A DNA stretch of 64,000 nt from Botryllus schlosseri (Eukaryota), in assembly GCA_051294905.1 (NCBI GenBank), contig CM119372.1:39434001-39498000 (forward strand), read 5' to 3'. The notes under the pieces are model-generated. The model searched no databases, was not told where the DNA came from, and saw only the letters and a list, made by a program, of their open reading frames with translations. The translations under genes were made by a program, and so were the position numbers. Each line of letters starts with the position of its first letter. Position 1 is the stretch's first letter. Below are positions 4,840 through 64,000 of the stretch, one piece after another.

Positions 4840-5260
4840 TCTTAGAGTCATGATTATACAGCCACGAGAATAATAATTCGGGGCCCAATGAAAATATACT
4901 AACAAGTTGCTGCAACATTTTGATAATTTGATTAAAAAAACGAATATTTGGCAACTAGGCATCCCGGTTCCGATAGTCGTCGAAAGCGGACGTACAGTGA
5001 TCAGTGGTAATCAGGAGAGACACTGGAATACGCCCTTCGCCTTTGCGCAATATCGGAAAACAGCTCGGAAGACATGGTTGCTATTGAGGATATGGCAAAA
5101 CGCAAATCATCTCTATCAACTGAATAAGATGAGGATCTGGCAACAAAACCACCGCCGAGGAGTAGACTCTGCATGAATCAAGACCTCAAAACTCGAGAAG
5201 GTATGTCCAAATGTATCTCCGTATGCGAACATAAAGACCATTACAGGTAAAACACGCAGA

Positions 5261-20200: not shown

Positions 20201-20886
20201 GCAACATTTAGCAAATACAGCGCTGGAGTCAACCTTATATAAGCCCTAACCAAACGCCCATTAGTTTTCCCACCTACTACTTCGCGGATGGAAATACGCA
20301 TTAAAGCGAACGGACGCGACTTGTCACACTCTTGCTATTTCTGCTCCTTTTTTCTCTTCGTTTCTCTTCTCTGTCGCTTCCGCTTGAGGAGAGAAACAGT
20401 CGGCCGCGTTTACGGATCGTGAATTCCCGGTGGGTGATTCTTCCTCGAATGGTCAGCACCTTGAAAATTGAGAACAATGTTGTTGCAAAATGCATGACAA
20501 TTTGAAAGTTACATCATTCTAATTATTCCAGTTATGGCCGTGAATCGTTACAAGTGCGGTAACTATAAGAATTATTACTATACTTCAACTACAAATACAA
20601 TACATTGTATAAAATGATTACCAATTCTTTTACGTTGATCGAGTCCCAAATAGATGAAATATGTCAAAGAATTTGCTAAATTTTTGTATAATTTGACAGA
20701 TTCCGAAATCTTCTCAAAGTGCACCTTTCAAAAATTTGATATCAAGACTCCCAACATTTTACAATTCGAAGTTGGATGGCTTTACCAATACAAGCAAACA
20801 GTTTGTATCGCAATTGACAATTATGTAGAGAACGCTGCGAGACATATGAGTAGGCCTACCCTAAAACGTTTCTCTCACACGGACAT

Positions 20887-21552
20887 TAGGGCTCTTAAAA
20901 TATGACTTTTTTTCTCAAATCGTTCTGGCTACTTGATAATATTGTTAGGTTACCTAATTTAAGCCTAAACACAAAATTTGGTTCAATTCCAGCCAGTAAC
21001 CGCTTTGCTACAGGAGAAGAAAGTTTCTATTTATTATATAAAAATAAATAGGTAATAAAAATTTGAAAATTTTCTGTTCACCCCATGAAAGTGTTAGGCT
21101 GTCTATAGAAACGATGCTCACCAAATTTGGTTCAATTCCAACCAGTGGAAGCGGAGATATTGCCGTCGAAAAATTTGGATTTGAATAAAATAGTATTTAC
21201 GGTGACCGATTCTTTGTTTACTTATTAAAGTTGTGCTCACCGTAAGTACTATTTTATTAAAATCCAAATTTTTCGACAGCAATAACTCCGCTTCCACTGG
21301 TTGGAATTGAACCAAATTTGGTGAGCATCGTTTCTATAGACAGCCTAACACTTTCATGGGGTTAACAGAAAATCTTCAAATTTTTTATTATTCATTTTTA
21401 TATAATAAATAGGAACTTTCTTCTCTTGTAGCAAAGCGGATACTGGCTGGATTTGAACCATATTTTGTTTGTAGGCTTAAATTAGGTAACCTAACAATTT
21501 TATCAAGTAGCCAGTACGATTTGAGAAAAAAAGTCATTTTTGAAGAGCCCTA
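20887..21552. mobile_element. Foldback MITE, almost entirely palindromic
   Basis: Inverted arms of ~320 bp (tagggctctt...aagagcccta) around a ~30-bp loop at 21206-21237. No clean TSD. Confidence 0.85.
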
Positions 21553-21995
21553 CTGTTCATGACCGTCCACGTTTAGAGTTGCATCTCAAAGATGCTAAAA
21601 TAAGCCTAAATATAATCCAAGCAATACGATCGTCCACTTTGACTGACTGGATTTCTAAAAACACCTTGACAGCTTCCACATCTTACGTTTATATATACTG
21701 TCTGCTATCGGCACAACAAAGTAGGCCTATTTAAAAATACCAAAACAGATTCAACATACCACATCTCTTGCAAAGGCTTTTGCTTTCATTCAATTTTCCA
21801 TCAAACTTCTTTAAATCCTCCTTTGTGGTGAGTTGCTTTGGAATTCTTCTAGGATCAATTCCGATATTGTTTTATCATATACAATCTATGGCGGAATAAA
21901 AGTTTCGGATAAGTTCTAAAACGAACACAATTTTCCACACAAAAGTCAATTGCCACACGAAATGCCAAATGCTACGGTCTCATTTTACAAGGTAT

Positions 21996-39362: not shown

Positions 39363-40461
39363 TGTGATAAAGATTAGAATTCATTCACCAATTTCAATAT
39401 TACAGCCTCAGTAGAGTTATTTATAGTAGAAAGTGAAAGTATCAGTGGTTAGGGAATTTGAGTAAAGGGTGTGTATGGTTTAGTATATGCCGATTGGCGA
39501 CTATAGTTGAAGTCTTCAATCCAGTTTTCAGGACATATCGATGCTATAGGCCAGGGCTCGGGGACTCGGGGACATATGTCTCGTCGTGGCTCTTTGCGGT
39601 ATCAATTGTCAAGTCACGTCACGAAGCACGAATCATTGTAGTCTGCTGTATAATGTATTAATAGAAAGATACATACGTGGATGTGTGTTCACGGCGTACA
39701 ACGCATTTGATACTGACGTTAATATTATTTGACGACTGGTGAAAGCCCCTGAGTCGGGGTACGCTAATAATGTGACGAATCTGTATAATGGCTTCTGTCT
39801 GCAATTTCTTATATATACATGAGAATGAACGGAACATAGAGGGTGAGTCACACTCCTATGCCTGTTGTTTTCCTCTCCTCTATAAGGGCGAAGTACCGGC
39901 TCTCAACGCACGCCTAGAATTGGTACCGGTAACAAATTCCTAACAGAAATATACCAGGTGGAACGCCATTTTTAGCGCCGTTACCGTAATCAATTTTTCA
40001 TAACTAAACCGACGAGTTACGTACGGTAAAACACTTCCTGTCTAATATCGATTGTCCACTGTTTAAAATTCTTCCTTTGCCTGTATCACGACTAAAAAGT
40101 GCAATAGTGAAGAACGCGTGCCTGTAATTTTCCAAAATGGTAATTAGAAATGACGCGTGACATCAACACCTCATAGATATAAGGGCCCAAATTTTACCTT
40201 TTGTAGAAATATTGTACATTCTATTCGTTTACGGTGGCTCTTTAACTCTTCCGGAATGTTTTCACACCTTCAACGAAAATTAGAGACCACATAATATTTA
40301 AAGATTATATTCGTGAACGGTAAATTAGTGGCCATGTATATCGCAACCTAGTGGATTAAGTTTCAATAGCTTCTGGTGGCGTGCTGGAGGTAGATATTGT
40401 AAATAGTTCAGGTTGTTTAGCTATTTCTGGCCGCGATGTTTCGAACGACCCATATCTATAG

Positions 40462-42459: not shown

Positions 42460-42535
42460 ATGGCAGATGGGGGTCAAAATCAACATTCCGGTGTCGCTGA
42501 TGTCACGTCCACATCCTTAGTTTCCGGGACTAAGG
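42460..42535 (+). CDS. Putative first coding exon of a host gene (MADGGQNQHSGVADVTSTSLVSGTK)
   Basis: Unique sequence. Upstream acceptors (tttctgcag, cgctag), ATG in acaATGG context, strong donor G|gtaagt. Its phase 1 matches the exon at 60757. Confidence 0.55.
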
Positions 42536-45500
42536 GTAAGTAATACCTTTAAGATTCGATCTCGGACTGCTTGATATTAATATCCATATTATCCATAATT
42601 GATACCTTATTTACGTATAACACATTTTGCTCCGTTCTTAGCATAGAGACAGAATGGTTTTGGAGATCTTTACAGAATCGATAATATTATTTGATATGCC
42701 AATATATCGAACCGCGCATGCATACTGTTATCAATAGTGTCCTATGATATCTGACTTTCGCAGAAGGTAAATTGTCAATCCAAAGTTCTCTAGGAACTCG
42801 ATATCCCGTATCCCCAAACCAGAGTAGCCACCAAGTAGTGAGTAATCCGTACGAATATTTGACATTTCTGATATCATTGGTGATTGCCAATTAGTGTGCT
42901 GTTGCTACTCTTCAAATTTGATGATATCCACAAAAAATTGTGAGGCCCGCATTAGAGTGGTAGTCGTGTCCGATGAAGCAGAGGTCTCAAACTGAAATGC
43001 GCTCGCGGGGCAATTTCTTAGTGTTTGATGACGCCGCGGGCTGCAGCATCAATAATAGGGATATTCAATGTAAAATTTCCAAGTAGGCCTTATTTGACGG
43101 GGGCTTGCATACAGGCATTCCACCAACATCGTGAAAATGTAATTTACTATTGTTCTATTCACGCTTGACACGGAAACAAAATCACATTTTCAAATATTTG
43201 AATAAAATCCTTTTTGTACCGGGCATAATTTGTTAAAATGATGAGTTATGGACATCATGCGAGAGGATGCATCATAACATTGTCAAACTGTCGGGTTACA
43301 TTATTGTAGCTAGTGGGCATTTGACGTGCCACAATTTTATTTAGGATATTTTAAAATCTAATGAAAATTGATCTGATATCAGAGCATTTGAGCGGTTTAG
43401 CCTAGTTGGGGTTTTGATGTAGTCGTGATAAGTAGGATATTGCTACTGTCATTGCCAAAGTCAACTTAAATCAGCGTTAGATTTTGCCTTCGATTATTAT
43501 TGGAACTTGGAACATATCAATAACAACTTAAATGTAATCATTATTGAGCAATAGTAATAGCATTGTTTCTTAACTTTAGCGATCGTGCCCTTCGTGCTTC
43601 CAATAAGATTTCTCGTATCCCCTGTTCATTTTCAACACAATTTCTGATGGTACCTATATTAAAATCAGACAGGTAGGATAGGACAGGATAGGCCTAATTC
43701 CACAATGCATCTCGTACCCGCTGATGCGCTGCTTCGTACCCCGAAGGGGTCTACGGACCCTGGTTAAGAACCCCTGGAATAGATATGTTCAATCGCCGAC
43801 GAATTTATTGGTGTTACAGCTGTGGAGCGTACTACTACCTTACTCGCAACCTACAATAACATAGATAAAGAGAACAAATAACACCCAGCTTGTAAGCAAC
43901 TATGCGTCACGGGGGTCACATAATATCGATGGTTGCCATACTAACTTTATTAGATAGCTATATACCCTACTAAACGCAAGCTACGACCTTTTGATATATT
44001 ACAATTCCCGATGACAGTTTCATGGATTGTTACGTCCGTAGTAGGAATATAAGGTCACCGTTCCGAGTCGCAAGTCATTCTGTGATTTTAACGTTTGACC
44101 CGACTCAACTCCAGTCGTTTTTATTTAATCGCTCAGCCAATCCGAAATCGAGTAATGTTACGAAAGGTCGCACCAAACAAAATCACAATGTTTAGTCACG
44201 AATCATCATCGGGTCATGTTTTATCAATATGAACTAGAAATATGACGTAATAGCCGATCTTCTACCGCATCGTAGCTTTTAAACGTGATGTGATATAGTG
44301 TAGTTTGTGGAGATTTCAGTGATTTTTATTGTAGTTTCAGGGTGAACTTTAAGTTCGTATATCTAAAAAAGATATGTGGCACTTGAATATATTGTCGAAT
44401 GCTTGAAATTCCAGAATGATGTCGTTGGCCGCACAAAATGTTCTCGCGAGGCAAAGTCGCAAGGCAGAGTCGCCATTGGTCTTTGTTGATTTTGACTATG
44501 TTCCATATCGAGTTTGGTGACAGGATTGAGTATGGTATATTGTAATGCTGTCATCTAGCACTGTACCAAGTTTCAAGGCTGTGACTTGATGATTAGCATA
44601 ATAATTTCGCTGTCGAAGTCGAGTATCTGGTAGATGTATAGCCGACTTTGATATAGGAATTACTATGCTAATCATTAAGTAACAATCCTCAAACTTGCTG
44701 CGAAGCTTGATAACACATCCAAGATACATCATACCGAATTTATATCGTCATCTATGTCGGTATGGAACACTTTCAAAATTTACATATACCAATTACAAAT
44801 TTTGCGAACATTCCTTTATGCGGTATAGGCTCAATGGAAAATAAGCACATTCAGACCCACCCTGGATACTCGACTTTGATAACGTACTTACTAATGTAAT
44901 TATCGAGTCACAGCCTAGAAACTTGGTACAGTGTTAGATTCCTTCATCCAGCTATATACTAATAGGCTGAATGCCAGATTAGAGCGCACCCTAGCATACT
45001 CGACTTCGATAACGAAATTGCTACCGTAATCATTGAGTCACAGCCTTCAGGGTGGGTTTCACAAAGTAGTCTTAATTTAGACCTGGCTTAAGGCCAGTGA
45101 ATGACTTGCTCAAGTCGCCAGGCGTCGGCCGTCTTACATGGGTTTCAAATGTCAATTTGGCGCCAGGCTCGGCCAAGTCCGTTAGTTGCGAGTAATTACT
45201 GTCTACTTCGTCGCTGTAGCGAGTTCAACACGGAACCGAGGCCAGATTGCTATTGTTTTGAGTTGCTCGCTGATATCGTTGAGTATAGCGATGCAGTGAA
45301 GGAATATGAAATTGATTGAGTTGTTGAAATTTACGGACGGATGATCAGAACAGAACCCCGAGGAAGTATCTGGCAGATGTTCAGCACGTTATCGCAAAGT
45401 ATTCGAAGAAATAGTGCGGCTGTGATTCCGATTTTTGAAGACACAACTGCCCAGCATTTTGGCATATTAAATGATGAAGATTATGCTCTTGAAGATGCTG

Positions 45501-47781
45501 AATATCCACTGAGGACTTACTTACTCACGCCACTGTTATGCCCAAGAACTTTGACCGAAAAAAGTCACTATTGTTTTCATACATAATATTACCCTCTGGC
45601 AGAGCGCAGTGCTTTCTGTGTTGAAGAAAATATCTCGCGCATTGGCAATATTCAAGGAAGAACCTCAGAATATCGTTATGACAATAGCCTGCCTTTACCT
45701 TCACAATCATAGCAATGCAGACAAGGCAGATGGAGCTGAATTTGATGGCATACTGCATCTGGAATCGTTGAACGCACTCGCACGGTATCGAATCCTACAT
45801 AGAAATCTGCACGACAACGCATGATCTAGAGATTTTTTTCTAGCTAGCATTCACAAATATTCTTGTTTGCAATACATTTGATTACATTCCAAAACATGCT
45901 CGTGCTTTATTGCTTGTGACACGTAAAAATGAGGTAAAATGTGCATTATTGCTTTAAGAAAGTTCAAGTTTATAAATTTGTGACACAAGATAGCAAAGTT
46001 ATTGCAAGGGGCTTGGAAAACTGGAGCAGGTGGACATGAACGGCTGAACAAAATTGAATCAAATGTACAAAAGACATGTTTTGATTCTAGATTCGGCTAG
46101 CGTCAAATTAATGTTGTTCAACATTTTCTATAATTATTAACTTTGAGACAATGCTCAACTTGTTTTATTCTCTTCTGCTTTATCACTGATTTCCAAATCT
46201 TCGCTGCTTCATAGCTGACTGTGGGCCTGGGCGTCGGTGAGCTGTTGGTAGAGATATAACTGATGAATTTCGAACGAATTTTTCAATTTTTATACTGTTG
46301 CTATCCATACAAAACTCAATAGTAATACATAGCATCAGCAAACCATACGAATGTTAATAGCAAATGAAATAATAATTAATAGCAATAATAATGAGATAAC
46401 AAACAGACAATTGATGAACTAGTAAAAAGTAATGAATGCAAATTTACCGTGATTTGGTTGGAAATGTTGCTGCCAAAACAACTAGCAGATGCAGCTCCCA
46501 ACTGCTACTCCATAAGTTGGCAGATCAGATGGGTCAGCATCTATCACAAAACAACTTATCAAGCATGGTATAAATATGAATGGAAATGACATACTTACAG
46601 CCCAGTGTTGGTATCACTGTGTGAGGAACTGGATAAAGCTCGAGCAAAGTGCTTTCAGAAAAACCTTGATATAAAATTAACTGGATATTGGTATGCGCAT
46701 TCACACTCACATATACAGATAGATAGATAAATACCTATTTGATGGCTTGGCACATCACTGCTTGTTTGATTTTCTCTGTGTTCCAAAAGAATGGTGCTAT
46801 CATTTGTTTCACAGCCTGCAGCTCACTCTGGTGCCACATTGCACAGTTATGTAATAATTTTTACATTGACTGATTATGCTACTATGACGATACTATGACT
46901 GGGTATCATATCTGTGAAAACAATGTTGAATTGACATATATATCAAAAAATTTGGATTACTGTAGCGTTTGCATGTACTGTACTTTGGATATTATTGGCA
47001 TATATCACTTCACATCAATGGCCCCTTTAAGCTGCATACATGCGCAAATGCGCAGTGCTGACACGGTCTATGCGCACAGAAAATCCGAAGTGATGGACCC
47101 TTTTTTTAGTCGTTACGCACTGTTGTCAAAGGGTCTGCGTAGTGAGTTCTTGAGTGTGCGCACAGACTCGTCAAAAATGAGAGGTAACATTGCTTCACAT
47201 CTGTAGCAATTCACTAACAACTTCATGCCAAGTCATGTCGTTTTTCTTTCCAAAACTTCTGAATCTTTATCCACTATGCTGAAATTCGGTGCGCGTGCAG
47301 TGAACGGAATATCAATACAATGTTGGTTGAAAAAACACATATTGATCAAAGTTCCATGTAGTCAGCACTATTCTAGAGAGTAGCGGTTACACATATTTAT
47401 GACAATGCTCATAGGCGTGAAGCGAAAATGGATATTGAGGGGAACCCTGCAATCAATCACAGTTGATTAGGCTCAACGAAATGAGCATGATACATATTTT
47501 CCATTTTCTGGTGACGCGTCGTGAGTTAATTTTTTAGCTATAACCACAGCAAAGTTAAACTATCAAAACGTCAACGTGCCTAAGTTAAAAGACGTAACCA
47601 GTCGTGAAAACTATAATGATGAGTTGACGTAGGCTGTCAATAAGGGACCTGTTGATCTGCCGCAACCTAAAATCTCATCTTGGGGCTTCTTCGATACATG
47701 CACCATAGTAACTGATGATCCCCATGACCACCACGATAAGCATCATTACCTTTAGCGGATTCGTATCGCTGACCTTTGTTC

Positions 47782-49760
47782 CAGTGTTGCCAACTCCAAA
47801 TGGACAAAAATCGCTAAAACTGGTGTCGAAAGTCGCTAGATGTCGCTAAATATTGAAAAGAAATCGCTAGAAAAAGTCGCTAAATCTGAATTAATTCCTA
47901 AAGTTGTTGAAAGACCCACCCGTACATTCGCATATTGCAGATTTTGCGTCATTTGTGGCATTTTTAGTTGTGCCTGTCCATTAGCCTGCCTGTCAAAGCT
48001 ATGAAGAATGACGAATTACCCTGAGGCGGACATTCAGGTGTTCTCGGAAGACATTTTAGATTTCCTGAAAAAGGAGGACAAATCCTCCTGAAAGAGGACA
48101 TGTGTGGAACCCTATTATATTTCGAGTTCATAATACGCAATAGTCATGTCAGATTGTCAGTCATCTCAGAACGGGACGAATTATGCGGTATATTTCAACC
48201 AAGGACATCCAGATATTCCTGAATGGATGGGGGTACTTGAATAAGACATGACACGACCGGGTCTGCTGGCCAATATTAGTATTAACTAGGCTTACCATAC
48301 GTCCTCTTTTAAGAGGATTTGTCCTCTTTTTTGACTTTTTTGAAAGTGTCCTCGGAGGACGCCCTTTTGTCCTCTTTTTTGAGATTTTGTCCTCTTTTTT
48401 TAAAATTCAGGTCTGTTATGCCGCAAATTAGCACAGAAGTGACGGTCCGGCGGATATTTCGGAGTGAAAAACGGTGAAGTTAGCTCTGAGCGAAAAAATG
48501 ACCTTTTTTTTTTAGTCATCCACCTGGCAATGTAGAGTAAAAAACGTTATTTTGAGATCTGAGCGGAAGTGAAGACCTTTTTTTTTTTTAGTCAACCGAC
48601 CGCAAAGTGGGAAAAATTCACCGGTTTTTGAGAATTCTACTCCGGTTTTGTATCTTGCAAATTTCTGAAAAAGTGTCCTCTTTTTGCATTTTCAAAATAT
48701 GGTAAGCCTATATTAACGTACGTTTTACAAAAGAATAGGAGGCCAATCTGCTAAATATATATCACTACTTATATAGCGGGAGACGATCCAATTATATTTC
48801 TATTCCCCTGTACACCCATCTGATCAATGGTATATAAATTATTACGTTTGATATTTGTTTGCAAAAGTAACGTGTTAATTCTGAATGAAGTTCGGTTCGA
48901 TGAAGTAAGTTATTGTCTAAAGTCTATTTAAGAGTCTTTCTGTTATCCGGCAGCACGCATAGAAATTCGTGATTACATTTTTTGGTTATTTCAGTATTAA
49001 AGTGTTGTCACATCATGTGTTAGTATCAAAAGTAGGCCTACGCGACGTAATCGTTCATTTTTTCATCGATTTGACGTGAATCAGATATAAAATTTTGTAT
49101 TCGAGCAATTCGGGGGAAGGCGATTTAAACGCGATCCCCTTTCGATCCCGTTATTGGTACAAATAGTGTTATAGGACTGGTGCAGCTCGCGTATAGGTGT
49201 CAAAAGTCCGATGCATAATAGTTGTCGCAGTTATCTTGTAAATCGCGGTTTCCGTTTTGGAGGATGCGGAATCCTATATATTCGTCCGGCGTGAACGTAC
49301 AGAATTCATTCACATATCGGACCTTCTACCTACCATATAGCAAATTTCATTGGACGAGCATGATTGCGATTGGTCGTATTGGGAGTCAATTGGCGATCTC
49401 GTTCAATCTTGGGAAATTTAGCGATTTTCATCGCTGAAAAAGTTATGACCATTTTGCTCCCGTGACCAAGAAAGTAAGTAGAGATCGACGTTCATGTCCA
49501 ATTGTCCATGTCCAAGTCCATGCACGCAACCTGAATGCATCTCGGCAATGCGTTCTGACGCTGTGGCCCTCATGGTGAACGTGCATGATGTTGGCTGCTC
49601 AAAACTGATTCATATCAGATATTTTTGAAAAAAAATCGCTAGAATATCGCTAAATATTTTTCAAAAGTCGCTAGATTGATCGCTAGTCGGTATTTTTTGT
49701 CGCTAAACCGAACGAAAAATCGCTAGATCTAGCGACAAAATCGCTAAATTGGCAACACTG
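47782..49760. mobile_element. hAT MITE with tcgcta subterminal repeats, nested in the Harbinger
   Basis: TIRs cagtgttgccaa / ttggcaacactg, TSD ctttgttc. Confidence 0.9.
48287..48710. mobile_element. hAT-like MITE with gtcctc repeats
   Basis: TIRs taggcttaccata / tatggtaagccta, flanking duplication tattaac. Confidence 0.8.
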
Positions 49761-51232
49761 CTTTGTTCACCAAAATGGACGGGATTCGCAAGTCCAACGC
49801 TATGCGCACCTTTACGCCTTACCCCAAATATCATTTACGGTATCTCGTAACCACAGTCATATCATATTCGTAAACAAATTGATTGGAGTCAGAGGACGAA
49901 GGTTACGGTGGTCATAGGGAACACTATTCGATACAATATGGTGCGGTTATGCGAGAAGTGCTAAGCTGTCCAGGGCTCTGGCTATCCATTTTGAATGAGA
50001 TCCGCTAAGTTATGAAGACTCCTGCAGCATTTCACTGTAAATCCTATTATATAATAGTATATCATATCAGCTTGTCACGTTCATGACAAGATGGATCATG
50101 CTATGAGATAAAGCATTGCTCCAAACTGCCTGACAGCGCACTAAACAATCATTTCGTCTGATTTGACAAGCTATTCATCAGAAAAATGGCCAATCTCCTC
50201 TAAAAAACAGCACAACAGTTACCAGCACAGGAGACTTCAGCCTTCCCCCTACCAGGCTTGGATATCGGTCTTAACAAAGTTCCCGCTTGGAGGGAAATCC
50301 CCTTAAGCCACAGTTTTGAAATTGACTTAGGGCTGAGGGGTGAAGCTTAAGACCGCTTAAGTCGACTATTTGAAACCCACCACAGTGCTATATTACGAAA
50401 TTCTGCTATCCCCCGCGGAATACAACACATTTAAAGCCTACATATAGCAATTCCGGTAGGCTAGATGCGAGATGAGCGCTCAACCTGATATACTCGACCA
50501 TGAGAACGAAATTACTCTCCTACACCCTTGAAAATTGGTTCAGTGTAAGATGAAATCATCTGACCTTCAGCCTACCGCATAGCAGATTTCTCGCGAAAGA
50601 TAGTATTGGCATGTGTAGATTTTAATTGTGTTATACACGGCGATGGATAACAAAATTTCGTTCTACATTTCTTCATGATGGCATCCAACGATGCACCAAG
50701 TTTTAAGGCTGTGACCCAATAATTATAAGTCGTGAATACAGGGTCCGCGTGCGCCGATGTGGCAATGAGCCTACCGTATGAAGGAATTTTCGCAAAATTT
50801 GATATTGGTATATGTGAATTTTAAGAGTGTTCCATACTGAGATGGATGACCAAATTCGGCATGGTGTATCTCGGTTGTGTTATCCAACTTCGGAGAAAGT
50901 TTCAGGATTGTCACGCAATGATTAGCTTGGTAAATCTGTTATCGAAGCCGGCGATATATCGGTGCGCGCAGATCTACCAGATACTCGACTTCAACAGCGA
51001 AATTACTAGGCTAATCATTGAGTCACAGCCTTGAAACTTGATACAGTGGTAAATGTCAGCATCAAAATATACCATACTAAATCCTGTCACCAAACTCGAT
51101 ATGGAACGTGGTTAAAAACAAGAAAGACCAATAGCGACTTTGCCTTTGTTACCGTTGCAGACCGATCGACAATAACAAAGTTGTCAAAGATATCTGGGCG
51201 TGACAGTCACGTGGTTTTCCGAGTGTCCACAC

Positions 51233-51648
51233 CAGAGATGAGCGGATTTGAAATTTCTATGTCCTAATTCAATCCAAATCCGAACCTTTAAATCCAAATC
51301 CAAATCGCAATCCGTAACTTTTACATATTCAAGTCCATGTACAATCCTAATCCGATTCCAACTGGACATTCAGAAAAAATACTAATTTATGCGATCGAGG
51401 GATTCGAAAATTTTCTTTCACAACCAACGATTCACTTGATTCAAGATAACTTAGTAGCCATAAGTACATTAATAACTGATCTGAATAAAGTTTGTCGCCA
51501 TTCGCCACACGACATTTCGATCTCCCAGAAACTAGGTCAATCCAATCCAAATCCTAATCCGTTCTGAAAAAAATGTCTAATCCAAATCCGACAAAATTTC
51601 ACAAATCCTGTTTTTTCAAAACCTAATCCTAATCCATGCTCATCTCTG
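51233..51648. mobile_element. hAT MITE with aatcc repeats
   Basis: TIRs cagagatgagc / gctcatctctg, TSD gtccacac. Confidence 0.9.
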
Positions 51649-51917
51649 GTCCACACCACCTGTGAGAACACGCAGGTGAAACTGAGAAGAGGGCTATTCC
51701 ATGCACAGACAAACGATGTTCACATCACTACCTCTTCAAATCTCCTGAAATTTGGTACACGCAAAGATGAGCTTATTCCAAACAGGATGAACTTTATTTT
51801 ATAAAAATTGGACTTTTGGGTCAAAAGGTACGTCACTTTGAAAATTGACAATTTTCTGCTCATTTCGGGTCTGCACATCTCAGGTTTTATCAATGAAATA
51901 TTCAAGAAGGTGTAGCT

Positions 51918-52882
51918 CAGGGGTGGGCAAACTACGGCCCGCGGGCCGCATGCGGCCCGCAGCACCGTTCTGTGCGGCCCGCAAGAGTCTAAAGAAATTT
52001 TTTAAAAACATTGATAAAATGCGTACTAAAAATCGAATTAATAAAGGGACTTGATTAATTTTTCTTGGTATATTTCACCATGATTATTCTAAGACAGTGG
52101 TTCTCAAACTGATGGGCGCGCGATTTACGTCCAAATATCTCTCATCCGCACTCATACCTTCCATGCCATCAAACTATCCCATAGGTTTGCTAGCATCCTG
52201 GTTGCGTTTTGTGATATGACGATAAGGGGGCGCGAAATCTTTCACCATCATAAGGGGGGGGGGGGCGTGTCCTAAAAAGTTTGATAACCACTGATCTATG
52301 AGGTAAATACTTGATATCACAGCGGCTGCAACGAGATTGACATAATTGGATCACGAGTGGGATTTCAGATTGGCCATTACATTTTCAATTATTTCAGTGT
52401 TGTGCTTATAAGAATGATTCGGGCGTGTCTTAGGTATAGATTCGTTGTCTGTATGCGTGGAATTAGGGTATTTATAATTTATCTAGACATGGTAGAAGCG
52501 TGTTTGACGCTAACCTGGTTATGATGCTGTCAGCATTGTGGGCCCTGGAACTGAACCAAAAGTGGAATTAGTGAATCTATGAACAGATCGCTGCTCACAG
52601 ATTTAAATTTCAATCCTGTTCTAAGAATCGGGCCAACCGACTTTCATCTATAGTTTTGACGAATTGGTTATTGAGGTCCGCAAGAATATGAAATCTCACG
52701 TGTAGGACATCATCAAAGCAATGTTTGGCTTGCTTTAAATGAGCACATATATTATCTCCCTGTCCTCACTATATAATCAAATATTGCGTTTTGGTTTATA
52801 ATCCCGATTTTATATAGTGCGGCCCACGAATGGATTCAAATGTTGAATGCGGCCCGCCAGCTCAAAAGTTTGCCCACCCCTG
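51918..52882. mobile_element. hAT MITE in the left foldback arm, containing a smaller MITE at 52095-52293
   Basis: TIRs caggggtgggcaaact / agtttgcccacccctg, TSD gtgtagct. Absent from the right arm at ~58265. Confidence 0.9.
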
Positions 52883-53220
52883 GTGTAGCTAGATTTTGGA
52901 CGACAGTTGAGATACGGCATTTGGATTTATCTGAAGCTTGTCTGAACGCCTATATTTCCAAGTGAAATTTAATACCCTGTAGGTTAGGGTCAAAGGTTAA
53001 ATTGAGTAGGGAATCTGAAGTCAGTCAGGCGTTACACGATTTCGACAGCGGATTGCTCAAAAACATATTAAAATATTTTGGAAAAAACGATCTTAAATGA
53101 AAGTTTACTTCAAGGAGAATTCGTTCATAGCTGTTGATTTTGGTTTTAAAACTGTAAAGTGATGAAATTGCAGTTTTAAGAGCACACTGGATTTGTACGT
53201 GGATATGCAGCACTAGTAGG

Positions 53221-53620
53221 GCGTGTTCGGACATCGAGTCTGGGGTGTGTGTGGGCAACATGTCTGGGGTGTGCTCGGACTGTGTTGCCATTCGGACATC
53301 GTATCTGGGGTGAGTTCGGATTGTTTTGCCCCTCGGACATCGTGTCTGGGGTGTGTTCGGGACATCATGTCTTGGGTGCGTTTGGAAAGTTTTGCAACTC
53401 GGACATCGTGCCGAGGGTGTGTTTGTAATGTGTTGCCATTCGGACATCGTGTCTAGGGCGTGCTCGGACATCATGTCTGGGGTGTTAAGACTGTGCTGCC
53501 ACTCGGACATCGTGTCTGGGGTGTGTTCGGATTGTATTGTGACTCGGACATCGTGTCTAAGGGGGGTGGGGGTGTTAGGGCATCATGCCTGGGATGTGTT
53601 CGTGCTGCCGAGACATGCCT
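53221..53620 (+). repeat. Minisatellite in the left foldback arm
   Basis: Core tcggacatcgtgtctggggtgtgt (24 bp) alternating with ~42-bp variants. Confidence 0.9.
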
Positions 53621-53794
53621 CAGACCTTATATCTGCGCACAATTTTTATCCGGACATGCTTCGGTGCTGATACCTGGGCACTAAATACCTCCAGGCATGA
53701 TGGTCCGGACGTATATCTGCGCGCTTAATGGACGACAGACATGCGTCAGACGTGATACCCGCGTCCTGAACGACGCATGACCTATATGCAGGGT

Positions 53795-54800
53795 CAGGGC
53801 CGTAACAGCACTTCGTCAGGCCCCCTCAAAACGTTGGTCCTGGGCCCCCCATAGGGTGATAAACCTGACTTCTGGGGGGCTTCGCCCCCCCGGACCCCCC
53901 TTACTCTGTCCGTTGTTTACCACTGCTTATAATGTATATTGGGTGTGCGCTTCATAAGCCAGTTTTTATCGCATAAACGCGCGAAACGCGAAAAATTTCT
54001 ATAATTCATGACTGAATCGGGCAATATGATCGGGAATAGCATATATATTGCAATCAATTTCTTGTCCTCTATGCTCAGTTGCTCACGTAATCAGATTTAC
54101 CGGTAGAGCTGAGTCAGGTGTTGTCTTGGAAAATGTAGAGCCCGTAAATAATAATTAAACATCTTCGGGCAGGTGGACCCATTGGTATGACTTCGTTACA
54201 TGATGGTATTTCGTGACCTCCTGTCTGCTATATCAAAAGTATACAATCGCCCAAAGATACTAAACTAAAAGATCACACGATTTCAAATTGGTATTTCTTC
54301 ACTGGCATATAATTTTTCCTTGATGGGTGGTATTTGTCTTGTGAGGTTCAGTTTGCCAAGACAGGAACATTTAGGTGCCAGTCATTTAGATGCCTATGGA
54401 CTATTAAACCCACATGTCTTTTGTATATGTAACGAAGTTTTCGGTCAGCATAATTTTCGGCCAAGGTTTTCTCGCTGCCGATCGTTCTGGCACACTTTTT
54501 GCAGTCGCATGTTACATGACCCAAAACTTTATACGTCTTGGTGCGTCGTGGCGAGGTAATGGCCAACGCTGATATGCCCATTTCTATAAATCTTGCGTAT
54601 TTTTTCTTGTGGGAAGAGCACCCAATATTCAAGATAGTCGGCAACTTGAAATCGCGCGCAGCGTGAAAAATTTTTGATAAAGTTGCCTAAATTTTCAAAA
54701 AATACTCTATAATTTATGCTAATTCACGAAATACTTTTGGGCCCCCTTCGAGCTCGCCCCCCCCAATTGGGGGGTTTGGGGTGCGGCAGTTACGGCCCTG
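53795..54800 (-). mobile_element. CAGGGCCGTAAC-family MITE inserted inside another element's TIR
   Basis: Perfect TIRs cagggccgtaac / gttacggccctg, TSD tgcagggt. Confidence 0.9.
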
Positions 54801-55112
54801 TGCAGGGTTGCCATACCGTCCTTATATCTAAGATTTGTCCTTATTTTGAAGAGCCACGTCTTAGAAAACTCAACTGTCCTTATTTTTAAGAAATGTCCTT
54901 GTTTTTGACTTGCGTCCTTATTTTGTCTTATTTTCAACAACTACTACAGAACTTCGATCATTTTCCTCTGGTATCTGTGTTGCAATATCTGCAATTGTGA
55001 CATTGACCTGGAGACCATATGAAAAATACCGCTATTTTAACTTATATTGAAGAGCTTCTTGGAGGTACAGAACTTCAATATACAATTTAATAGAATATTC
55101 ATATTGAAATGA

Positions 55113-55156
55113 ACCCGAATATTTTCGGCTGACACTCGTCAGGGGTAATCGTCAGC
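55113..55156 (-). ncRNA. Minimal type I hammerhead ribozyme (inverted copy)
   Basis: Reverse complement of 56060-56103. Confidence 0.75.
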
Positions 55157-55589
55157 AACTAGTAGAGAATTGGAAAGAACATTGTATATCAACAATCGTA
55201 TCACAAAATATGACGTGACCAGCATGAAATTTCGAATGAGAGAGCGTTCAATGTATTATTTTTAGGTGGTACACGAACTCCTTTTGTTGACAGAGTTTTG
55301 GTTGGTGTATTTTGATAAAAGTTGATTCCAAGGCACACAAATGGAATTGTGAACGGCCTCGCCCTACGATTCGAAATCAGTCGTCTCGATAATTATTCGC
55401 ACAAATCGGATTATCCAACAGATGTTTGCCGATGGCAGAATTAGTGGCCTTTGATCGATCAGCATCAATCTTAAGTGGATGAGTTGAGGGTGAGCTTTTC
55501 ACTGAACGTGACGCACGTGTTCTGATAAATCTGGGACGTGTTGGTTTATGCGGTCCTGCAGACGTCTTGACGTGTAGTGTATATCCACA

Positions 55590-55968
55590 ACTTGTAGTGT
55601 ACGAATATAGGTGCCACTGTGATTGTGGCTACGTGGGAAGAACGTCAAGACGTCTGCAGGACCGCATAAACCAACACGTCCCCAGATTTATCAGAACACG
55701 TGCGTCACGCTCAGTGAAAAGCTCACCCTTAACTCATCCACTTAAGATTGATGCTGATCGATCAAAGGCCATTAATTCTGCTATCGGCAAACATCTGTTG
55801 GATAATCCGATTTGTGCGAATAATTATCGAGACGACCGATTTCGAATCGTAGGGTGACGCCGTTCACAATTCCATTTGTGTGCCTTGGAATCAACTTTTA
55901 TCAAAATACACCAACCAAAACTCTGTCAACAAAAGGAGTTCGTGTACCACCTAAAAATAGTACATTGA
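55590..55968 (+). pseudogene. Penelope GIY-YIG endonuclease C-terminal fragment
   Basis: VVYEYRCHCDCGYVGRTSRRLQDRINQH..SAIGKHLLDNPIC..LCALESTFIKIHQPKLCQQKEFVYHL. The TGA at 55855 is CGA in the inverted copy. Confidence 0.9.
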
Positions 55969-56059
55969 ACGCTCTCTCATTCGAAATTTCATGCTGGTCA
56001 CGTCATATTTTGTGATACGATTGTTGATATACAATGTTCTTTCCAATTCTCTACTAGTT

Positions 56060-56103
56060 GCTGACGATTACCCCTGACGAGTGTCAGCCGAAAATATTCG
56101 GGT
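56060..56103 (+). ncRNA. Minimal type I hammerhead ribozyme in the Penelope pseudo-LTR
   Basis: ACCC-CUGACGA-GUGUCAGCC-GAAA-AUAU-UC-GGGU: intact core boxes, stem I ACCC/GGGU, palindromic stem III AAUAUU, predicted cleavage after C56099. Confidence 0.75.
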
Positions 56104-57344
56104 TCATTTCAATATGAATATACTATTAACTTATATTGATACCCCAAAACACACGAAGTGTGTCAGCTGCTGCTGAGGATACCTATGGCATTCCATGCTG
56201 ACAAAAACCAGCAATCATTAGCCTACTTACCAACGATTGCACCTCGCAATATTCCCCGATTCTAACATCGCAAGGAGTTTGCTTCGGCCAGGACTAAGAC
56301 TTCAAAGCATTGTTACTGTAGGTCTTGTTCCATACACTCAAAAATGATTTTGTCTAAACTTGGTGTAGGCCTACAGCCTTTTCCTATACTGGCTGACGCC
56401 TCCTATCACAGCGAGGTGAAGAAGTTTGGTTTATCACCCTATGGGGGCCCAAGACTATCGTATTGCTTTTTTTAGTGGGGGGGGGGGGGTGAAAAGGTGC
56501 TGTTTTTGCCCTGAGTAAAGGTAAACCTAGACCTGAGCGGTCGTGAGATCAATGAAGCACTTTCTGATAACAAGGAGTTGCTGGAGCGGATCGCTTCTGG
56601 CGAAAGTATGGAAAATGATATGCCACGCCTCGTATAAATACACAGTATGTACGAAACGCTTTTTAATGCCAATCTTATTTTTCGACTGCCCTTATTTTCG
56701 GGTCCATGTCGATCGCAACCCTGCCTATATGTCTGCGGTTTTTGTTGATATCAGCGATAGTTGGGTATATCCACAGTAGTGATAGCTGAGTTTATCCACA
56801 GCTATCACTACTGTGGATATGTCCAGCTATCACAGATACCACTACTGTGGATGTGGAATTGTGGATATACTCAGCTATCGCTACAGTGGATATACTCAGC
56901 TATCGCAGATATCACCAAAAACCGCAAACATAGATGTCATATATAGGTCACGCATCATTTAGGACGCGGGTATCACGGCTGAAGCATGTCGTCTGTGTCC
57001 ATTCAGCGCGCAGATATCAGGTCCGGACCATGCCTGGGAGTATTTGGTGCGCAGGTATCAGCTCCGAAGAATGTCCTTATTAAAATAGTGCGCATCACAA
57101 ACATATACTCATGTATCACTACTGTGGATATACCCAGCTATCGCAGATATCAGCAAAAACTGTAGACATAGGTCATATATAGGTCATGCGTCGTTTAGGA
57201 CGCAGGTATCACGTCTGACGCATGTCTGTGTCCATTAAGCGCGCATATATCCGGTCCGGATCATGCCTGGGGGTATTTAGTGCGCAGGTATCAGCACCGG
57301 AGCATGTCCGGATAAAAATAGTGCGCAGATATCAGGTCTGAGGC

Positions 57345-57930
57345 ATGTCTGGCGCAGCACAAACATATTCCAGAAACGATGTCCGAATGAAAACACAGTC
57401 CGAACACACCCCAGGCATGATGTCCGAACAACTCCCTCCAGACGCGATGTCCCAGTGGCAACACAGTCCCAACACCCCAGACATGATGTCCGAATACACC
57501 CCAGACACGATGTCCGAGGGGCAAAACAATCCGAACTCACCCCGGACACGATGTCTGAATGGCAACACATTCCAAACACACCCCAGACATGATGTCCGAA
57601 CACCCCCTGACACGATGTCCAAGTGACAATACAATCCGAACACACCCCAGGCATGATATCCGAAACACCCAAGACACGATGTCCGAGTGGCAGCACAGTC
57701 GTAACAACCCATACATGATGTCCGAATGGCAACACATTATGAACACGATATCCGAGTTGCAAAACTGTCCATACGCACCCAAGGCATGATGTTCCGAACA
57801 CACCCCAGACACGATGTCCCAGGGGCAAAATAGTCCGAACTCACCCCAGATACGATGTTCGAATGGCAACACAGTCCGAACACACCCCAGACATGTTGCC
57901 CGCACACACCCCACTCGATGTCCGAGCACG
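57345..57930 (-). repeat. Minisatellite in the right foldback arm
   Basis: Reverse complement of the 53221-53620 array with more units. Confidence 0.9.
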
Positions 57931-58779
57931 CCCTACTAGTACTGCATTTTCATGTACAAATGAAGTGTGCTCTTAATACTGCAACTTCATCACTTTACAG
58001 TTTCAAAACCAAAATCAAACAGCTATGAACGAATTCTTCTTGAAGCAAACTTTCATTTAAGATCTTTTTTTCCAAAATATTTTAATATGTTTTTGAGCAA
58101 TCCGCTGTCGAAATCGTGTAATGCCTGACTGACTTCAGATTTTCCCCTCAATTTAACCTTCGACCCTAACCTACAGGGTATTAAATTTCACTTGGAAATA
58201 TAGGCGATCAGACAAGCTTCAGATAAATCCAAGTGCCGTATCTCAACTGTCGTCCAACATTTAGCTACACATTCTTGAATATTTCAATGATAAAACCTGA
58301 GATGTGCAGGCCCGAAATGAGCAGAAAATTGTCAATTTTCAAAGTGACGTAACTTTCGACCCCGAAGTCCAATTTTTATAAAATGAAGTTCATCCTGTTT
58401 GGAATAAACTCATCTCTGCGTGTACCAATTTTCAGGAGATTTGAAGAGGTAGTGATGTGAACATCGTTTGTCGGTGTATGGAATGGCCCAAGAGCTAGAT
58501 AGTCATGTTGCGTCACTATGCCAAAACCCGATCATAATGCAAATTTCTAGGCTGATTTTATTTTTTATTTTTCATTTTCACGACAATTAACAGACTAAAA
58601 TGTATATTTCCGTAATCAGTACAGCATCATCTTTCCATTTATACCCGTATCCATCAGCTTTCCATTGAATTTAGCGTTCGTCAAGCCGGTCAAAAATGGC
58701 CGTAAAGTTGGCTTTGGTCAAATGGAAAGTATGACGTAACCCAAATGCACTGAGCCGTTCAGTCTCGCTGTGCTCACAC

Positions 58780-60474
58780 CATATATGACACTATGAAACC
58801 TCCTTCTTGAACACCACACTGTTCGCTGATGATACTCACCTCATCTCTTCCGCATCTACGACGGCAGAGCTGGACGCTTACTAGAATAGTGACCAAATGC
58901 CGAGAGTGGACGGCCAAAAATAAACTTTGCATATACGCCTCGAAATCCCAATTGCGGACAGTAGATTCAAAAAATAATATCGCTGGTCAGCCTGTTTCCA
59001 ACTAAAAAATGCCAAATATTTCGGGGTTCTACTGGATTCGGACATGTCCTGGAGGAGTCATATTCAGTCCCTAGCTAGACACTAAATTATCACCGAAGTG
59101 CGGCCTGTTCTACAGCCTTATAGACACTCCATGCCAGCCTGGGTTCTTCTGATACTCTTCAAATCCCCAATCCAATCGAAGTTACAATATGGCATCTTCT
59201 GTTGGGGTGCTGACAGTTTATGTGTCAGTTGCACTATGGTCATTGCCCCGAATATTTCAATGACTTTTTTTTACCTCGGAATCAAAAGCGCACAAGTAGC
59301 CTACAACACACGCTCGTCCACGTCGTCCAAATATCATATGATAGACCGAAAAGATCATCGCTCTATCAAATATGCCGGACCTGACGTGTTGAATAGTATC
59401 CCGCAGGCCATCTGTCAGTCGACGAGCATGTCCACATGCAATTCGAAATACAAACAATTTCTACTAAATGAATACTACTAGTCCATCCTCAAGATTACCG
59501 GACCAAAACCTGACCTTTCCATCTCGCTTTCCAAGACATGCCACCCCATTTTTGTCGCTTGCTTTTTTGTACTATCTTCTTTTACTTTTCATTCAGTGTG
59601 CATGCCTCCTCTTTACATCGCCTAGGGCAGTGGTTCCCAACTTTTTTCGTCTCGTGCCCCCCTTGGCCGATATTTGAGCTAAATTTCCCCCCTATGAAAA
59701 AGTTGTCTGTGACTAAAAAAATGTGCGTTTTAACGCGCAACCATTTGTTCACTGAGCAATTATTGGCCAAACATAATCAGATATGCCCGAACTATGTCGA
59801 ATGCGGACCGCGCCACACTTTTGGTAAAGTACAGTTAAATTTGACCGGTCATGTAGTCGCCGACGAAAAATAAATTACCAAGTCCGCTTGCTATGGACTT
59901 GAGTTGAATCGGTGAATTTGGTATGTTTTTCACGTTAGCTCATAGGTTGGCTTAAAAAGTTAAACAATTTCACCATCTTCTTGCTGAATTCGGCTTGACG
60001 TTTTACTGCCTAGTAGCAATTTGGTCGAGAGGCTGTCGCGGGCCCATCGAAATCGTCTCCTGAGCCTCACTTTATCAGGCGGTGTAATATCTACGGAAGC
60101 CATCTAAACATACATCTAGCTTCAAATCCGCCACAGAAAGATACAATTCGTAGGAACTAATTTCTATTTAACAGTTCTATACCATAAAAATCTAAAAACC
60201 TTGTGAACCCAGTGTATTTTCCGATACAATGCCAGATTCCCCCTAAAAATTTAAGTCAGATCCCCCCCTAAAAATTTCAAAATTCCCCCGAAGGGGGGAA
60301 TTACCCCCCGGTTGGGAAACACTGGCCTAGGGCAACGTGGGTGTTTGATTCCATAGACTACTCCAATTCACTTCGACACTTTCGTATCCTTTCATTGTAT
60401 CGCATTTGTGGTTTATTGAACTGATAAAAATTGCTAATAAACCAATGATGATGATGATGATGATGATGATGATG
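58780..60474 (+). mobile_element. 5'-truncated CR1/L2-group LINE
   Basis: RT motifs LFADDT (~58820) and KYFGVLLDSDMSWRSHI, C-terminal YNTRSS..SIKYAGPDVLNSIP, then a 3' UTR with AATAAA and an (ATG)n tail. Confidence 0.85.
59628..60324. mobile_element. hAT MITE in the LINE 3' UTR
   Basis: TIRs cagtggttcccaac / gttgggaaacactg, TSD gcctaggg. Confidence 0.9.
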
Positions 60475-60756
60475 TCAGGATTTAAATAAAAGAGTCGCGA
60501 ACGCCACTCCCAGATCTTCCTAATGCGGAGTGGAGAGTAATTAACGCTTTCAATTTGGACGCTTTGGACTCCTAAATATGATCTGCCGAAAATAACAGTG
60601 AGGTATTGCTAATACGTTATATCGGTCAATGCGTAACCAGATTACCTGAGTAGAAAAATGTACCCACTAGTTACAATGATAATAACACGACCTAATACTA
60701 TTATATGTTATTTACCTAAATCCTACTCATAGAATAAATCTCGTTTACGTTATTAG

Positions 60757-60900
60757 CGGCAGCATTGGCTGAAGGTGAACATGTCACTCAGAAGTTCACA
60801 AAATGCTTGGTAAAAGTTCAAGCCGGAGATAATATTCATGGGAATAAAATCGTCAATCAAACTATGAGTGCTGGAGGCGAAGAAACTACCATAGACCAAG
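60757..60900 (+). CDS. Internal coding exon, repeat 1 with RHIM/amyloid-like motif
   Basis: ttattag|...|gtgagt, 144 bp, phase 1-1, open frame AAALAEGEHVTQKFTKCLVKVQAGDNIHGNKIVNQTMSAGGEETTIDQ. Paralogous to the next exon. Confidence 0.8.
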
Positions 60901-61501
60901 GTGAGTGAAATGCCGTTTTATCCTGAATGCAGGTGTGTCGTTCTGGTGACCAACAAATCAAACTTCATTGTATGTGACTGGAGAAAGCGTTGAAAGTAAG
61001 ATGGCTAGAAAAGAAATAGCTCCTGAATTCTATGTCACTGTAAACTGCATTTTTCACCGATATCTAAGATAACTCCGCCTCAAAGTAACCAGCCTCAACA
61101 TTGGTAAATTGCGACTTGCTCATATAAGCGTAGAATTTCGCCAATCGATTATACCACAGGGTCGAGTGTTCCAAATCCATATGCGAAAACGTCAAACATC
61201 TCACCTTTGTGAAATATGCTGTTCATACTATTGGTAGCGAAACGATTTTAGACCAGTCGCAAAGTTTCATTGCAAAATAATGCTTTGCGATACATGTGGT
61301 TGTGAGATGTCCAGCCAAACGTTATAGATGTCGCACCAGGAAACGGTTTTGTGAATGATATCATGGATGTGTCAGTTTACCGATTTCGATCCAGCTCGGA
61401 AACGACTATTTCGCAATTTGGCGTATTTAAATTTCGGAGTACGCATTATTGTATATGTATACGTATAACCGAATTGCATTTAATAATTCTGTGTATCTTA
61501 G

Positions 61502-61648
61502 TATCGGCAACATTGGCTCAAGGAGGAAATGTCAATCAAGTTAACGAAGACAGCTCGGTAGTTGTCACAGCTGGAGATCAGGTCCATGGAAACAAGATGG
61601 TCAATAACATTACGATTATCGGTGGCGAAGCAAGTCATTCTACTCAAA
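61502..61648 (+). CDS. Internal coding exon, repeat 2 with RHIM/amyloid-like motif
   Basis: tcttag|...|gtaagt, 147 bp, phase 1-1, open frame VSATLAQGGNVNQVNEDSSVVVTAGDQVHGNKMVNNITIIGGEASHSTQ. Confidence 0.8.
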
Positions 61649-61932
61649 GTAAGTGCAGTCTGATATCACAGTATACTGTACGGTGTAACTGTTCAGGCGA
61701 TTTTCTATAATAAGGCGACGGACGAGAGCGTTTTCAGAGAAATGTACCATTGTCGAAATGAAGGCTTACGACTGCCTAAACGGCCACAATAACATGTTCG
61801 TCAATGATCTTACATACCTCTAATATCAATTATTTACTGGGGATGGTGTGAACCTCATGATGCCACGTGGCGTCATATTGCTCATTCCAACCCTACATTT
61901 CAGTGAAGTGATTTATTAGTGTACCCGATACC

Positions 61933-62392
61933 CAGTGGTGGCCCTACGAACGGGGGGGCCCTGGGCGAGACTTACCGGGGGCCCCCTATAAGCATCTATC
62001 CGTAACTTCTGGGGGGCTCCGCCCCCCAGACCCCCCTTCCGCATCGGTTATTATTATCTATCTTGTACCACCGCAAAAGGTTTGCCCAGGTCCTGGATTC
62101 GGCCATGTCTGTTTTGCATGTGTGCGAGGATAGACTACATCAAAACTAAGTAATTCTACCGCATGCAGAGACGACGTGATGATTATCGGGATACGGGACT
62201 TTTCTAACAAATGCAGTGATTTGATGATGATTGACACATCTGTACGGAATCATATTCTTGCTTGGTACACGGATTTCCATGTTTATTCGTCATTCTCCTT
62301 GAAAAAAGCGCAAAATCCAAATAGGGGGCCCCCTTCGACCAGGGGGGGCCCCGGGCGACCGCCCACCTCGCCCACCCCAAAAGCCACCACTG
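61933..62392. mobile_element. hAT MITE nested in a gtgtgaacc-ended MITE (~61838-63200)
   Basis: TIRs cagtggtggc / gccaccactg, TSD ccgatacc. The host segment 61857-61912 is the reverse complement of ~750-808. Confidence 0.85.
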
Positions 62393-63200
62393 CCGATACC
62401 TAGTGACGACTCGTGCCACATTATGTCACAATTCTGAAGTACCTACCGACTTTTTAAACTTCGCCTTATATATCAACTGGGGCAATCAATTGGTATAATA
62501 CTCCCATACAATCAATATTTTACGTCACTTTGCCAACAATTTCGACGAAGACTTGCAGGGGAATACAAGCTTACGTCCTAACGGTCTAGGCCAGACCGGA
62601 GTATGTATTCGGAGTCTGAGTATTGCTACATTTATATTGGGCTGAGTGTCAAAAGGGTTTCCATACTTGCTACCGATATTTTCCAATTAACAAGTTATAC
62701 AGTAGCCAACACCCCAATCACACGGATTTTTTACGATACAATAAACATATCAAATCAAGATGGTCCCCGTTCACCTGCTAAATTTATTACATTCGACAAC
62801 GATGTATTATTTATATGAATTTCGTTGATAGGTTGAATAAGCATCATTCGCTGACCCTACCTACATGTAGCGTATTTGGCTCTTGATATTGTGTGATTGC
62901 GGGACAAGCTCGAAGCAGAGAGTCACTGAATATTTACAAACGGAAAACTGAATATTTCAAGCAAACTTCTGTAACAAAGAAAGTACAGCTTTTGAGATTT
63001 TTTAGGTACACTAGTTTCGTGTTGATTTTTATGCTGCCGCAGCGCCATGCATACAATGACCCGCAGTTGAAATGCAATGAATTGTAACCAAAAAATGTTT
63101 TGATGACGTGGAAAAGTGTAATATATCAAAAAGGTTTACAGTGCAGAACCCACCGAGGGTCGGTTGTAAACGTAAACGTCTAAATTTCAGAGGTTCACAC

Positions 63201-64000
63201 CAGACATCGGGTGATTACTTCATGAATGTAATCGATTGCGATTACGATTACGATTACAGCAAAATCGGGAAGTAGTCGATTACGATTACGATTACATTGG
63301 AAAAGTAATCACGATTACTCACGATTACATTTATTTTGCATTTTAGAAGTTGTATTGGAAGACAATATATGGATGGTGCTGAAAAGGCCTAATGAGATAA
63401 CAAACTTCCTTTAAAAAAGATGCGTCATTTGCTTGTTACGTCATAATGTACCCATTGCCCTTATTTATAGAGGACGATTTATCGCACCCAACCAATTGCA
63501 TTCTTGCCAGGTCCATGACTGCCGCACCACAAATTTCCCAATAGGGTGGGGAGCGAGCTCGGAGGGGACTCAAGAGTATTTCGTAAACCAACATAAATTA
63601 TAGAGTATTCTCGAAAGATTTAATTAACTTTAAATCCTCTCTAGAAAAGCTTGATTTTAGAATGCATACGTCTCTCCCTCAACAAAAAAGCATATATAAT
63701 TTATAGTAGGCATGCATTTAAAACAAATGGTTGTTTAAAACACATTGTTTAAAACTTGTTTTGAACAGTGTTTTAAAAAAAGGCAAAAAAAAAACTAAGT
63801 TGTGTTTTTTCAAGTTGTAAAATTATGCCATAATGGTGTAAATGCTTTCCACAATTACCACCCGATTCAGCCGACGAACATCGATATGAGATGGTTGGAA
63901 CCCCTCAAAATATGTCGGTTCAACAGTTATAGTACAGATATTTCGTAAAAGGAGCTATATTTACCCTATATTTTCAATTGTCAATGTCAATCCACATTGG
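63201..64000. mobile_element. hAT-like MITE with (GATTAC)n subterminal repeats, running off the window
   Basis: cagacatcgggtgattac start followed by gattac/gtaatc arrays. Right end not seen. Confidence 0.55.

Follow-up and report, generated by a model that had tools for sequence, protein, structure and literature searches.

Amyloid signalling motifs and tunicate NLRs

Amyloid signalling motifs (ASMs) have been described as stretches of 20–25 residues with a beta-arch composition, the fungal HRAMs being built of 21-residue pseudo-repeats, and a G-phi-Q-phi-G signature is reported to be common to RHIM, PP, and BASS3 (10.1101/2020.01.06.895854). Tandem duplication is typical of these motifs (PMC4262963; 10.1101/2020.01.06.895854), and new ASM families are still being found and validated in fungi (PMC9815663). 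The metazoan RHIM is described as a short, non-globular motif rich in G/N/Q/V/I, which sometimes occurs in tandem and takes the usual place of a death-fold (PMC4262963); its core tetrad has been defined as (V/I)-Q-(V/I/L/C)-G (PMC13506858).

Tunicates appear to lack RHIMs according to one survey (PMC4262963), and another reports that RIPK1 homologues were not found in this group (PMC12119088). The N-termini of invertebrate NLRs are described as diverse (PMC8662601), and ascidian NLRs have been reported without an N-terminal domain (PMC11508797). Receptors without an N-terminal effector domain, in animals apparently without RHIMs, leave open how such receptors signal. RHIM-NACHT proteins have been reported in amphioxus, e.g. 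Branchiostoma BF82280 (Kajava et al. 2014, PMC4262963), and amyloid-type heads of invertebrate NLRs are therefore not categorically new. Amyloid-like fibres have also been described between rejecting Botrylloides colonies (PMC2275902); these fibres, located outside the cells, are not known to be linked to the module described below.

Structure of the twin exons

The DNA analysed here is a 64-kb stretch of the Botryllus schlosseri genome (hereafter, the window), towards the end of which two similar exons are located.

60757..60900, + strand: E1, phase 1-1 motif exon of 144 nt (splice sites, open frame, spliced contig, and profile score)
60901..61501, + strand: intron between E1 and E2, 601 nt, GT..AG, absent from the X2 contig
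61502..61648, + strand: E2, phase 1-1 motif exon of 147 nt, paralogue of E1 (splice sites, open frame, spliced contig, and profile)

The original prediction of two exons with clean splice sites, lengths divisible by 3, and a shared 1-1 phase was confirmed at these positions. E1 is bordered by TTATTAG upstream and GTGAGT downstream and E2 by ATCTTAG and GTAAGT, and each contains a single open frame between its AG acceptor and its GT(A/G)AGT donor. The two encoded segments align without gaps and share 21 of 47 aligned residues, with a local alignment score of 90 versus 24.8 ± 5.1 (maximum, 49) in 2000 shuffles. The pattern previously proposed for both, LA(E/Q)GxxVxQ...V(Q/T)AGD(N/Q)(I/V)HGNK(I/M)VN...GGE, is correct. 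At the DNA level the exons are 62% identical, and their intron DNA, compared in 20-base blocks, is at chance similarity save for the bases adjoining the splice sites. A third copy of the motif within the window was rejected, as neither tblastn nor a profile run over 2274 six-frame segments yielded one.

The four codon differences originally quoted (GCC/GCT, GGG/GGA, AAT/AAC, and AAA/AAG) are likewise correct, and the 21 identical residues are encoded by the same codon in 13 cases and by a synonymous codon in 8. They had been taken to imply selection on the protein, a conclusion that had to be rejected: dN and dS between E1 and E2 are 0.48 and 0.67, respectively (dN/dS about 0.7), and the bootstrap interval of pN/pS is 0.47–1.38 (core, 0.33–1.63). 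Because this interval includes 1, the E1/E2 pair does not by itself demonstrate selection. Judged from the aligned sequences, conservation of the exon family described below is better evidence for constraint than the codons of this pair.

Splicing and expression

Four sequencing runs (X1, X2, X13, and X17) were mapped on positions 60500–64000; X2 was taken as RNA by guess only, and no run with matches is recorded as RNA. A 279-nt contig of X2 (depth, 7.63; no mismatch) joins 60769–60900 to 61502–61648 and thus skips exactly the 601-nt GT..AG intron at the predicted sites. A joint of this precision is expected from a spliced transcript, and the proposed check of the junction between the exons beginning at 60757 and 61502 accordingly came out positive in one of the four runs, with no joint in the other three. 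Pieces of X1 cross the exon–intron borders, and none contains the E1–E2 joint. In the raw-read runs X13 and X17, of which about 6 and 13%, respectively, were read, X13 covers about 64 bases of E1 and none of E2, and X17 covers neither exon. Bulk expression of the locus is low.

All X2 depth over E1 and E2 comes from the one contig, which stops exactly at the E2 donor (61648), with no X2 depth in the next intron bin. This end may reflect two alternative downstream exons or continuations, or two alleles, of which it is only suggestive.

Gene context in the window

On either side of the twin exons, the following parts of the gene were predicted.

42460..42535, + strand: E0, candidate for the first coding exon, made up of 25 codons and one extra base, with an ATG and the phase-1 donor G/GTAAGT; link to E1 predicted
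42536..60756, + strand: predicted first intron, 18.2 kb, repeat-filled (self-BLAST and tandem-repeat scans), containing no motif copy
61649..64000, + strand: beginning of the following intron, with repeats of very high multi-copy depth from about 61787 onwards; next exon beyond the window

E0 has the ATG and phase-1 donor earlier described for it. Its start context contains A at −3 and G at +4, and no signal-peptide-like stretch could be read from its sequence. The donor is one of five G/GTRAGT donors on the + strand in 1–60756 and one of two with an in-frame ATG, being the nearer one to E1. The predicted N-terminal position of the motif module depends on E0. A second ATG-bearing phase-1 mini-exon candidate lies upstream of E0 on the + strand (39788–39842; 18 codons; donor, G/GTGAGT) and could be an alternative first exon or a chance occurrence.

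Downstream of E2, four acceptor candidates were identified in 61649–64000, none of which could be paired with a donor in an open frame. The 64-kb window yielded neither a NACHT nor a kinase or death domain, and no ORF reaches the size of a NACHT domain (longest, 246 aa). Walker A/B, kinase, and ankyrin patterns were not found above chance, and the LRR pattern occurs 6 times versus 4.55 in shuffles; a neighbouring NLR within the window was rejected, the LRR, NLR, and kinase patterns being at chance level. A domain scan of 30 ORFs, which comprised most of the 34 with at least 100 aa and a few shorter ones, gave four weak matches below the cut-off, two of which are transposon-related.

The window also contains repeats and mobile element remnants. 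Copies of one repeat, 73–80% alike, lie at 10402–11260, 18012–18892, and 53979–54800; an ORF weakly matching TatD DNase (E 0.005, below the cut-off) overlaps the first copy, and this repeat type may be a mobile element that has picked up part of a host gene. Two long, near-perfect palindromes (20883–21556, 91%; 55075–56139, 94%) are fold-back or MITE-like, and the second is flanked by an inverted element pair (52883–53787 and 57177–58270; 82–85% alike) that contains a 23/41/64-bp minisatellite. Decayed transposon pieces at 77–400, 5177–5917, and 6377–6667 include a hAT dimerisation region (E 0.003), an endonuclease (E 0.001), and the 246-aa ORF; this ORF, which has no Pfam match and lies upstream of the endonuclease piece, looks like a LINE ORF1. 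A short-period repeat at 63191–63424 shows deep coverage of both strands in the raw-read runs (over 100-fold in the first bin of X17), and the many differences in these reads indicate transcription from other copies.

A family of related exons

A profile built from E1 and E2, as the original prediction had suggested, was run against 1.84 billion proteins and retrieved eight matches (E 5e-11 to 6e-4), all of which contain the module; no full-length relative was among them. The eight relatives are unnamed environmental singletons on contigs of 0.9–1.6 kb, carry one module copy each, are 40–56% identical to E2, and have no Pfam match above the cut-off. All are single-exon read-through ORFs. The match begins at the same start in seven of the eight, and in our reading the residues flanking the module in most of them resemble translated splice sites, as around E1 and E2. 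These flanks and the common start suggest that the exon itself is the conserved unit, and the relatives appear to represent this exon, annotated as a gene on genomic DNA. They may be paralogues or orthologues, or both.

In the reverse direction, a profile was built from the eight relatives without E1 and E2; these two exons scored 62 and 56 bits, respectively, against it, and the next window segment scored 7 bits. Since eight outside sequences carry the same exon, E1 and E2 belong to a family. Pairwise identity among the ten sequences (E1, E2, and the eight relatives) ranges from 32 to 65%, with means of 56% in alignment columns 4–33 and 31% in columns 34–48.

Three further searches of protein collections returned no full-length protein with the motif: E2 against longer proteins gave none among 42 candidates; the 10-sequence profile against longer proteins gave, among 8000 scored, only six known exon ORFs and one match at E 0.57; and the same profile against proteins of near length gave two already known sequences among 21. 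The best match among PDB sequences had an E of 0.27, and the best in the Atlas stood at 0.79 and 0.80, with no family. In DNA collections, candidates were confirmed in 0 of 124 (metagenome), 0 of 77 (GTDB), and 0 of 84 (viral) cases. An eight-codon pattern gave nine further metagenome matches, which are confined to the core words and were read as chance. The literature search, which covered article text mostly from outside the subscription journals (tunicate sequences could be present in figures or supplements), found no report of the motif or of an N-terminal amyloid-like motif of ascidian NLRs. The exons define a previously unnamed motif family, which is real and spliced and whose function is putative.

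The 34-residue core

Within each exon, the alignment delimits a conserved core followed by a variable, S/A/E/P-rich tail.

60765..60866, + strand: E1 core, 34 residues, alignment columns 4–37 (alignment and composition)
61513..61614, + strand: E2 core, 34 residues, 62% G/N/Q/V/I, no proline (alignment and composition)

G24 is present in all 10 sequences, and L4, A5, E6, G7, Q12, V21, D25, and I27 are each present in 9 of 10. The conserved positions include charged ones, namely E6 and D25 (9/10) and K31 (6/8). At column 14, E2 contains N, versus F in the family.

Over the 10 sequences the core is composed of 52% G/N/Q/V/I, 0.3% proline (one in 331 residues), 16% charged residues, and 10% Ser/Thr. 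For comparison, 39 actinobacterial loci were fetched by a RHIM-like pattern, and 36 motifs, a set biased to GVQVGD, were retained as controls after removal of 1 duplicate and 2 short rows. In most of the loci the motif terminates a short ORF or lies close to the beginning of a long one, which is the arrangement described for BASS3. The 36 motifs contain 51% G/N/Q/V/I, 1.7% proline, 15% charged residues, and 10% Ser/Thr. The background in the window, estimated from 1757 34-mers, is 26.5 ± 8.1% G/N/Q/V/I, and 0.17% of these 34-mers reach 50%. The E1 core is less typical (44% G/N/Q/V/I; 21% charged). The core is therefore short, proline-poor, and G/N/Q/V/I-rich like the NLR-associated ASM class, with composition being a weak predictor.

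The core can be divided into two 17-residue halves, in both of which Gly, Asn/Gln, Val/Ile, and an acidic residue are found at corresponding positions. An internal offset of 17 is the sole positive one among offsets 8–25 and ranks first with each of the five window sizes, at borderline support (p 0.04–0.17); self-similarity at offset 21 is negative, and the core thus does not consist of the 21-residue pseudo-repeats of HRAMs. With the 10-row alignment as input, AlphaFold2 produced no confident fold (pLDDT 53; pTM 0.19; no elements). A four-copy complex prediction (score, 0.02; mark, 0.32) was counted neither for nor against stacking.

Comparison with known amyloid signalling motifs

The module had originally been labelled RHIM/amyloid-signalling-like; by the tests applied here, it is not a RHIM. 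The core tetrad is found in 0 of 10 sequences, and RHIM (PF12721), HET-s, and the PP families gave no match at E up to 10, nor was any other Pfam family found for E1, E2, or the ten aligned members (the HMMER filters drop most Pfam matches above E 0.1). The module resembles metazoan RHIMs in being a short G/N/Q/V/I-rich motif in tandem and in the five residues V-[QTV]-A-G-D, to be compared with V-Q-V-G-D in RHIM, whereas its conserved core spans 34 residues rather than 18–20. The VxxG by which the cryptic RHIMs of insects and crustaceans could be compared (PMC13506858) occurs in 9 of the 10 sequences, yet 34% of shuffles contain it as well, so that it carries little information; in every sequence, column 21 is occupied by V or I and column 24 by G. 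In contrast to the cryptic RHIMs, there is no PGRP/Imd context here.

The bulk composition of the module is nearly identical to that of the 36 actinobacterial motifs, which relates it to BASS3 and PP, but the G-phi-Q-phi-G signature is absent (0/10). In an hhalign comparison, which the original prediction had proposed along with the Pfam search, the family and control profiles aligned over 5 columns with a probability of 2.9% and a score of 12.1, versus 8.2 ± 2.3 in column shuffles; 7% of 150 shuffles reached this score, which is thus not significant. With HRAM and the HET-s PFD (PF11558), the module shares pseudo-repeats that, in the fungal systems, are described as solenoid rungs, the receptor carrying a single HRAM copy and the effector two; in the present module, the period is 17 (borderline) rather than 21, and a Pfam match is lacking.

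A similar bulk composition combined with no match of signature or profile suggests that the module resembles the ASM class and does not belong to a known family. The claim of an amyloid-signalling-like motif is consequently retained as far as it concerns a composition like that of the ASM control set and a module with no confident globular model, and is withdrawn as regards assignment to a known ASM. Taken as a whole, the earlier interpretation proved sound in its real, spliced, and duplicated exons, its conserved module, and its ASM-like composition, and failed in the RHIM label and in selection deduced from codons.

Possible function of the module

The exons, their mutual splice, their family membership, and their composition are direct observations. 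The interpretation that we prefer, to which we assign a probability of roughly 0.4, is that the tandem 34-residue modules form the N-terminal stacking arm, of amyloid type, in an immune protein of the cytosol, for which an NLR (NACHT) or a partner of one is the likeliest candidate. That the gene belongs to an NLR pathway at all appears probable.

The closest alternative also places the gene in an NLR pathway and takes the module for a short, non-amyloid docking peptide, e.g. a beta-hairpin folding on the globular domain of a partner, or for a conserved regulatory leader. The genomic evidence is the same for this explanation as for the amyloid one, and both the absence of the RHIM/PP/BASS3 signature and the conserved charged positions (E6, D25, and K31), which are reported to be disfavoured in in-register stacks when buried (PMC4262963), are in its favour. 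We nevertheless regard it as doubtful, because the composition is close to that of the ASM control set, the invariant or near-invariant Gly and Asn and the alternating Val/Ile fit a beta-arch, and tandem duplication is typical of ASMs.

We consider it unlikely that E1 and E2 open a non-immune beta-solenoid or repeat protein that continues past the window with additional copies or with domains of an unrelated kind. The absence of immune domains from the window would agree with such a protein, as would the 17-residue period, which fits a beta-helix rung, but no match was obtained in Pfam, PDB sequences, or the Atlas, and the variable S/A/E/P-rich tail after the core suggests a motif with its linker rather than an uninterrupted solenoid. 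The divergence of the family (32–65% identity) is, in addition, what might be expected of expanded immune genes.

A further possibility, in our view quite improbable, is that the exon family is functional elsewhere and that the present locus is a relaxed or decaying paralogue with weak transcription, in which this copy or the duplicate exon is neutral. The dN/dS of about 0.7 with an interval including 1, the near absence of reads in the two raw-read runs, and the N in column 14 of E2 would suit such decay, but each exon has kept its open frame, the four splice sites are without exception canonical, a spliced product exists, and E1 and E2 have diverged by 38% in DNA without a stop or frameshift.

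If the modules indeed form an amyloid-type arm, the two cores would constitute a flexible N-terminal arm, at its predicted position, and oligomerisation of the receptor would bring such arms together and nucleate a cross-beta stack. By analogy with HET-s/NWD2, BASS, and RHIM, this stack could take the form of a polymer, either beta-arch or two-rung solenoid, on which a partner with the same motif would be templated. Each core would possibly supply two 17-residue rungs, and the phase 1-1 exons would permit the copy number to change by duplication or skipping. The module would thus act like RHIM, HRAM, and BASS motifs while standing outside those families.

A bolder version, which we consider speculative, is that the exons represent a new animal amyloid motif family with no sequence relationship to RHIM, a two-rung (2 × 17) beta-solenoid encoded one per phase-symmetric exon, which replaces death-folds in an expanded, ascidian-type NLR system of a lineage reported to be without RHIMs. 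In that case, the present gene with its two copies might represent the adaptor or the effector, and nucleation might be tuned by the skipping or duplication of exons.

Peptide tests and prion assays of the 34-residue cores would be inexpensive. An exon-encoded stacking motif is easily missed by annotation and, if the proposed reading is true, would answer how ascidian NLRs signal; it would also extend NLR amyloid signalling of the fungal and bacterial style to animals by way of a non-RHIM motif.
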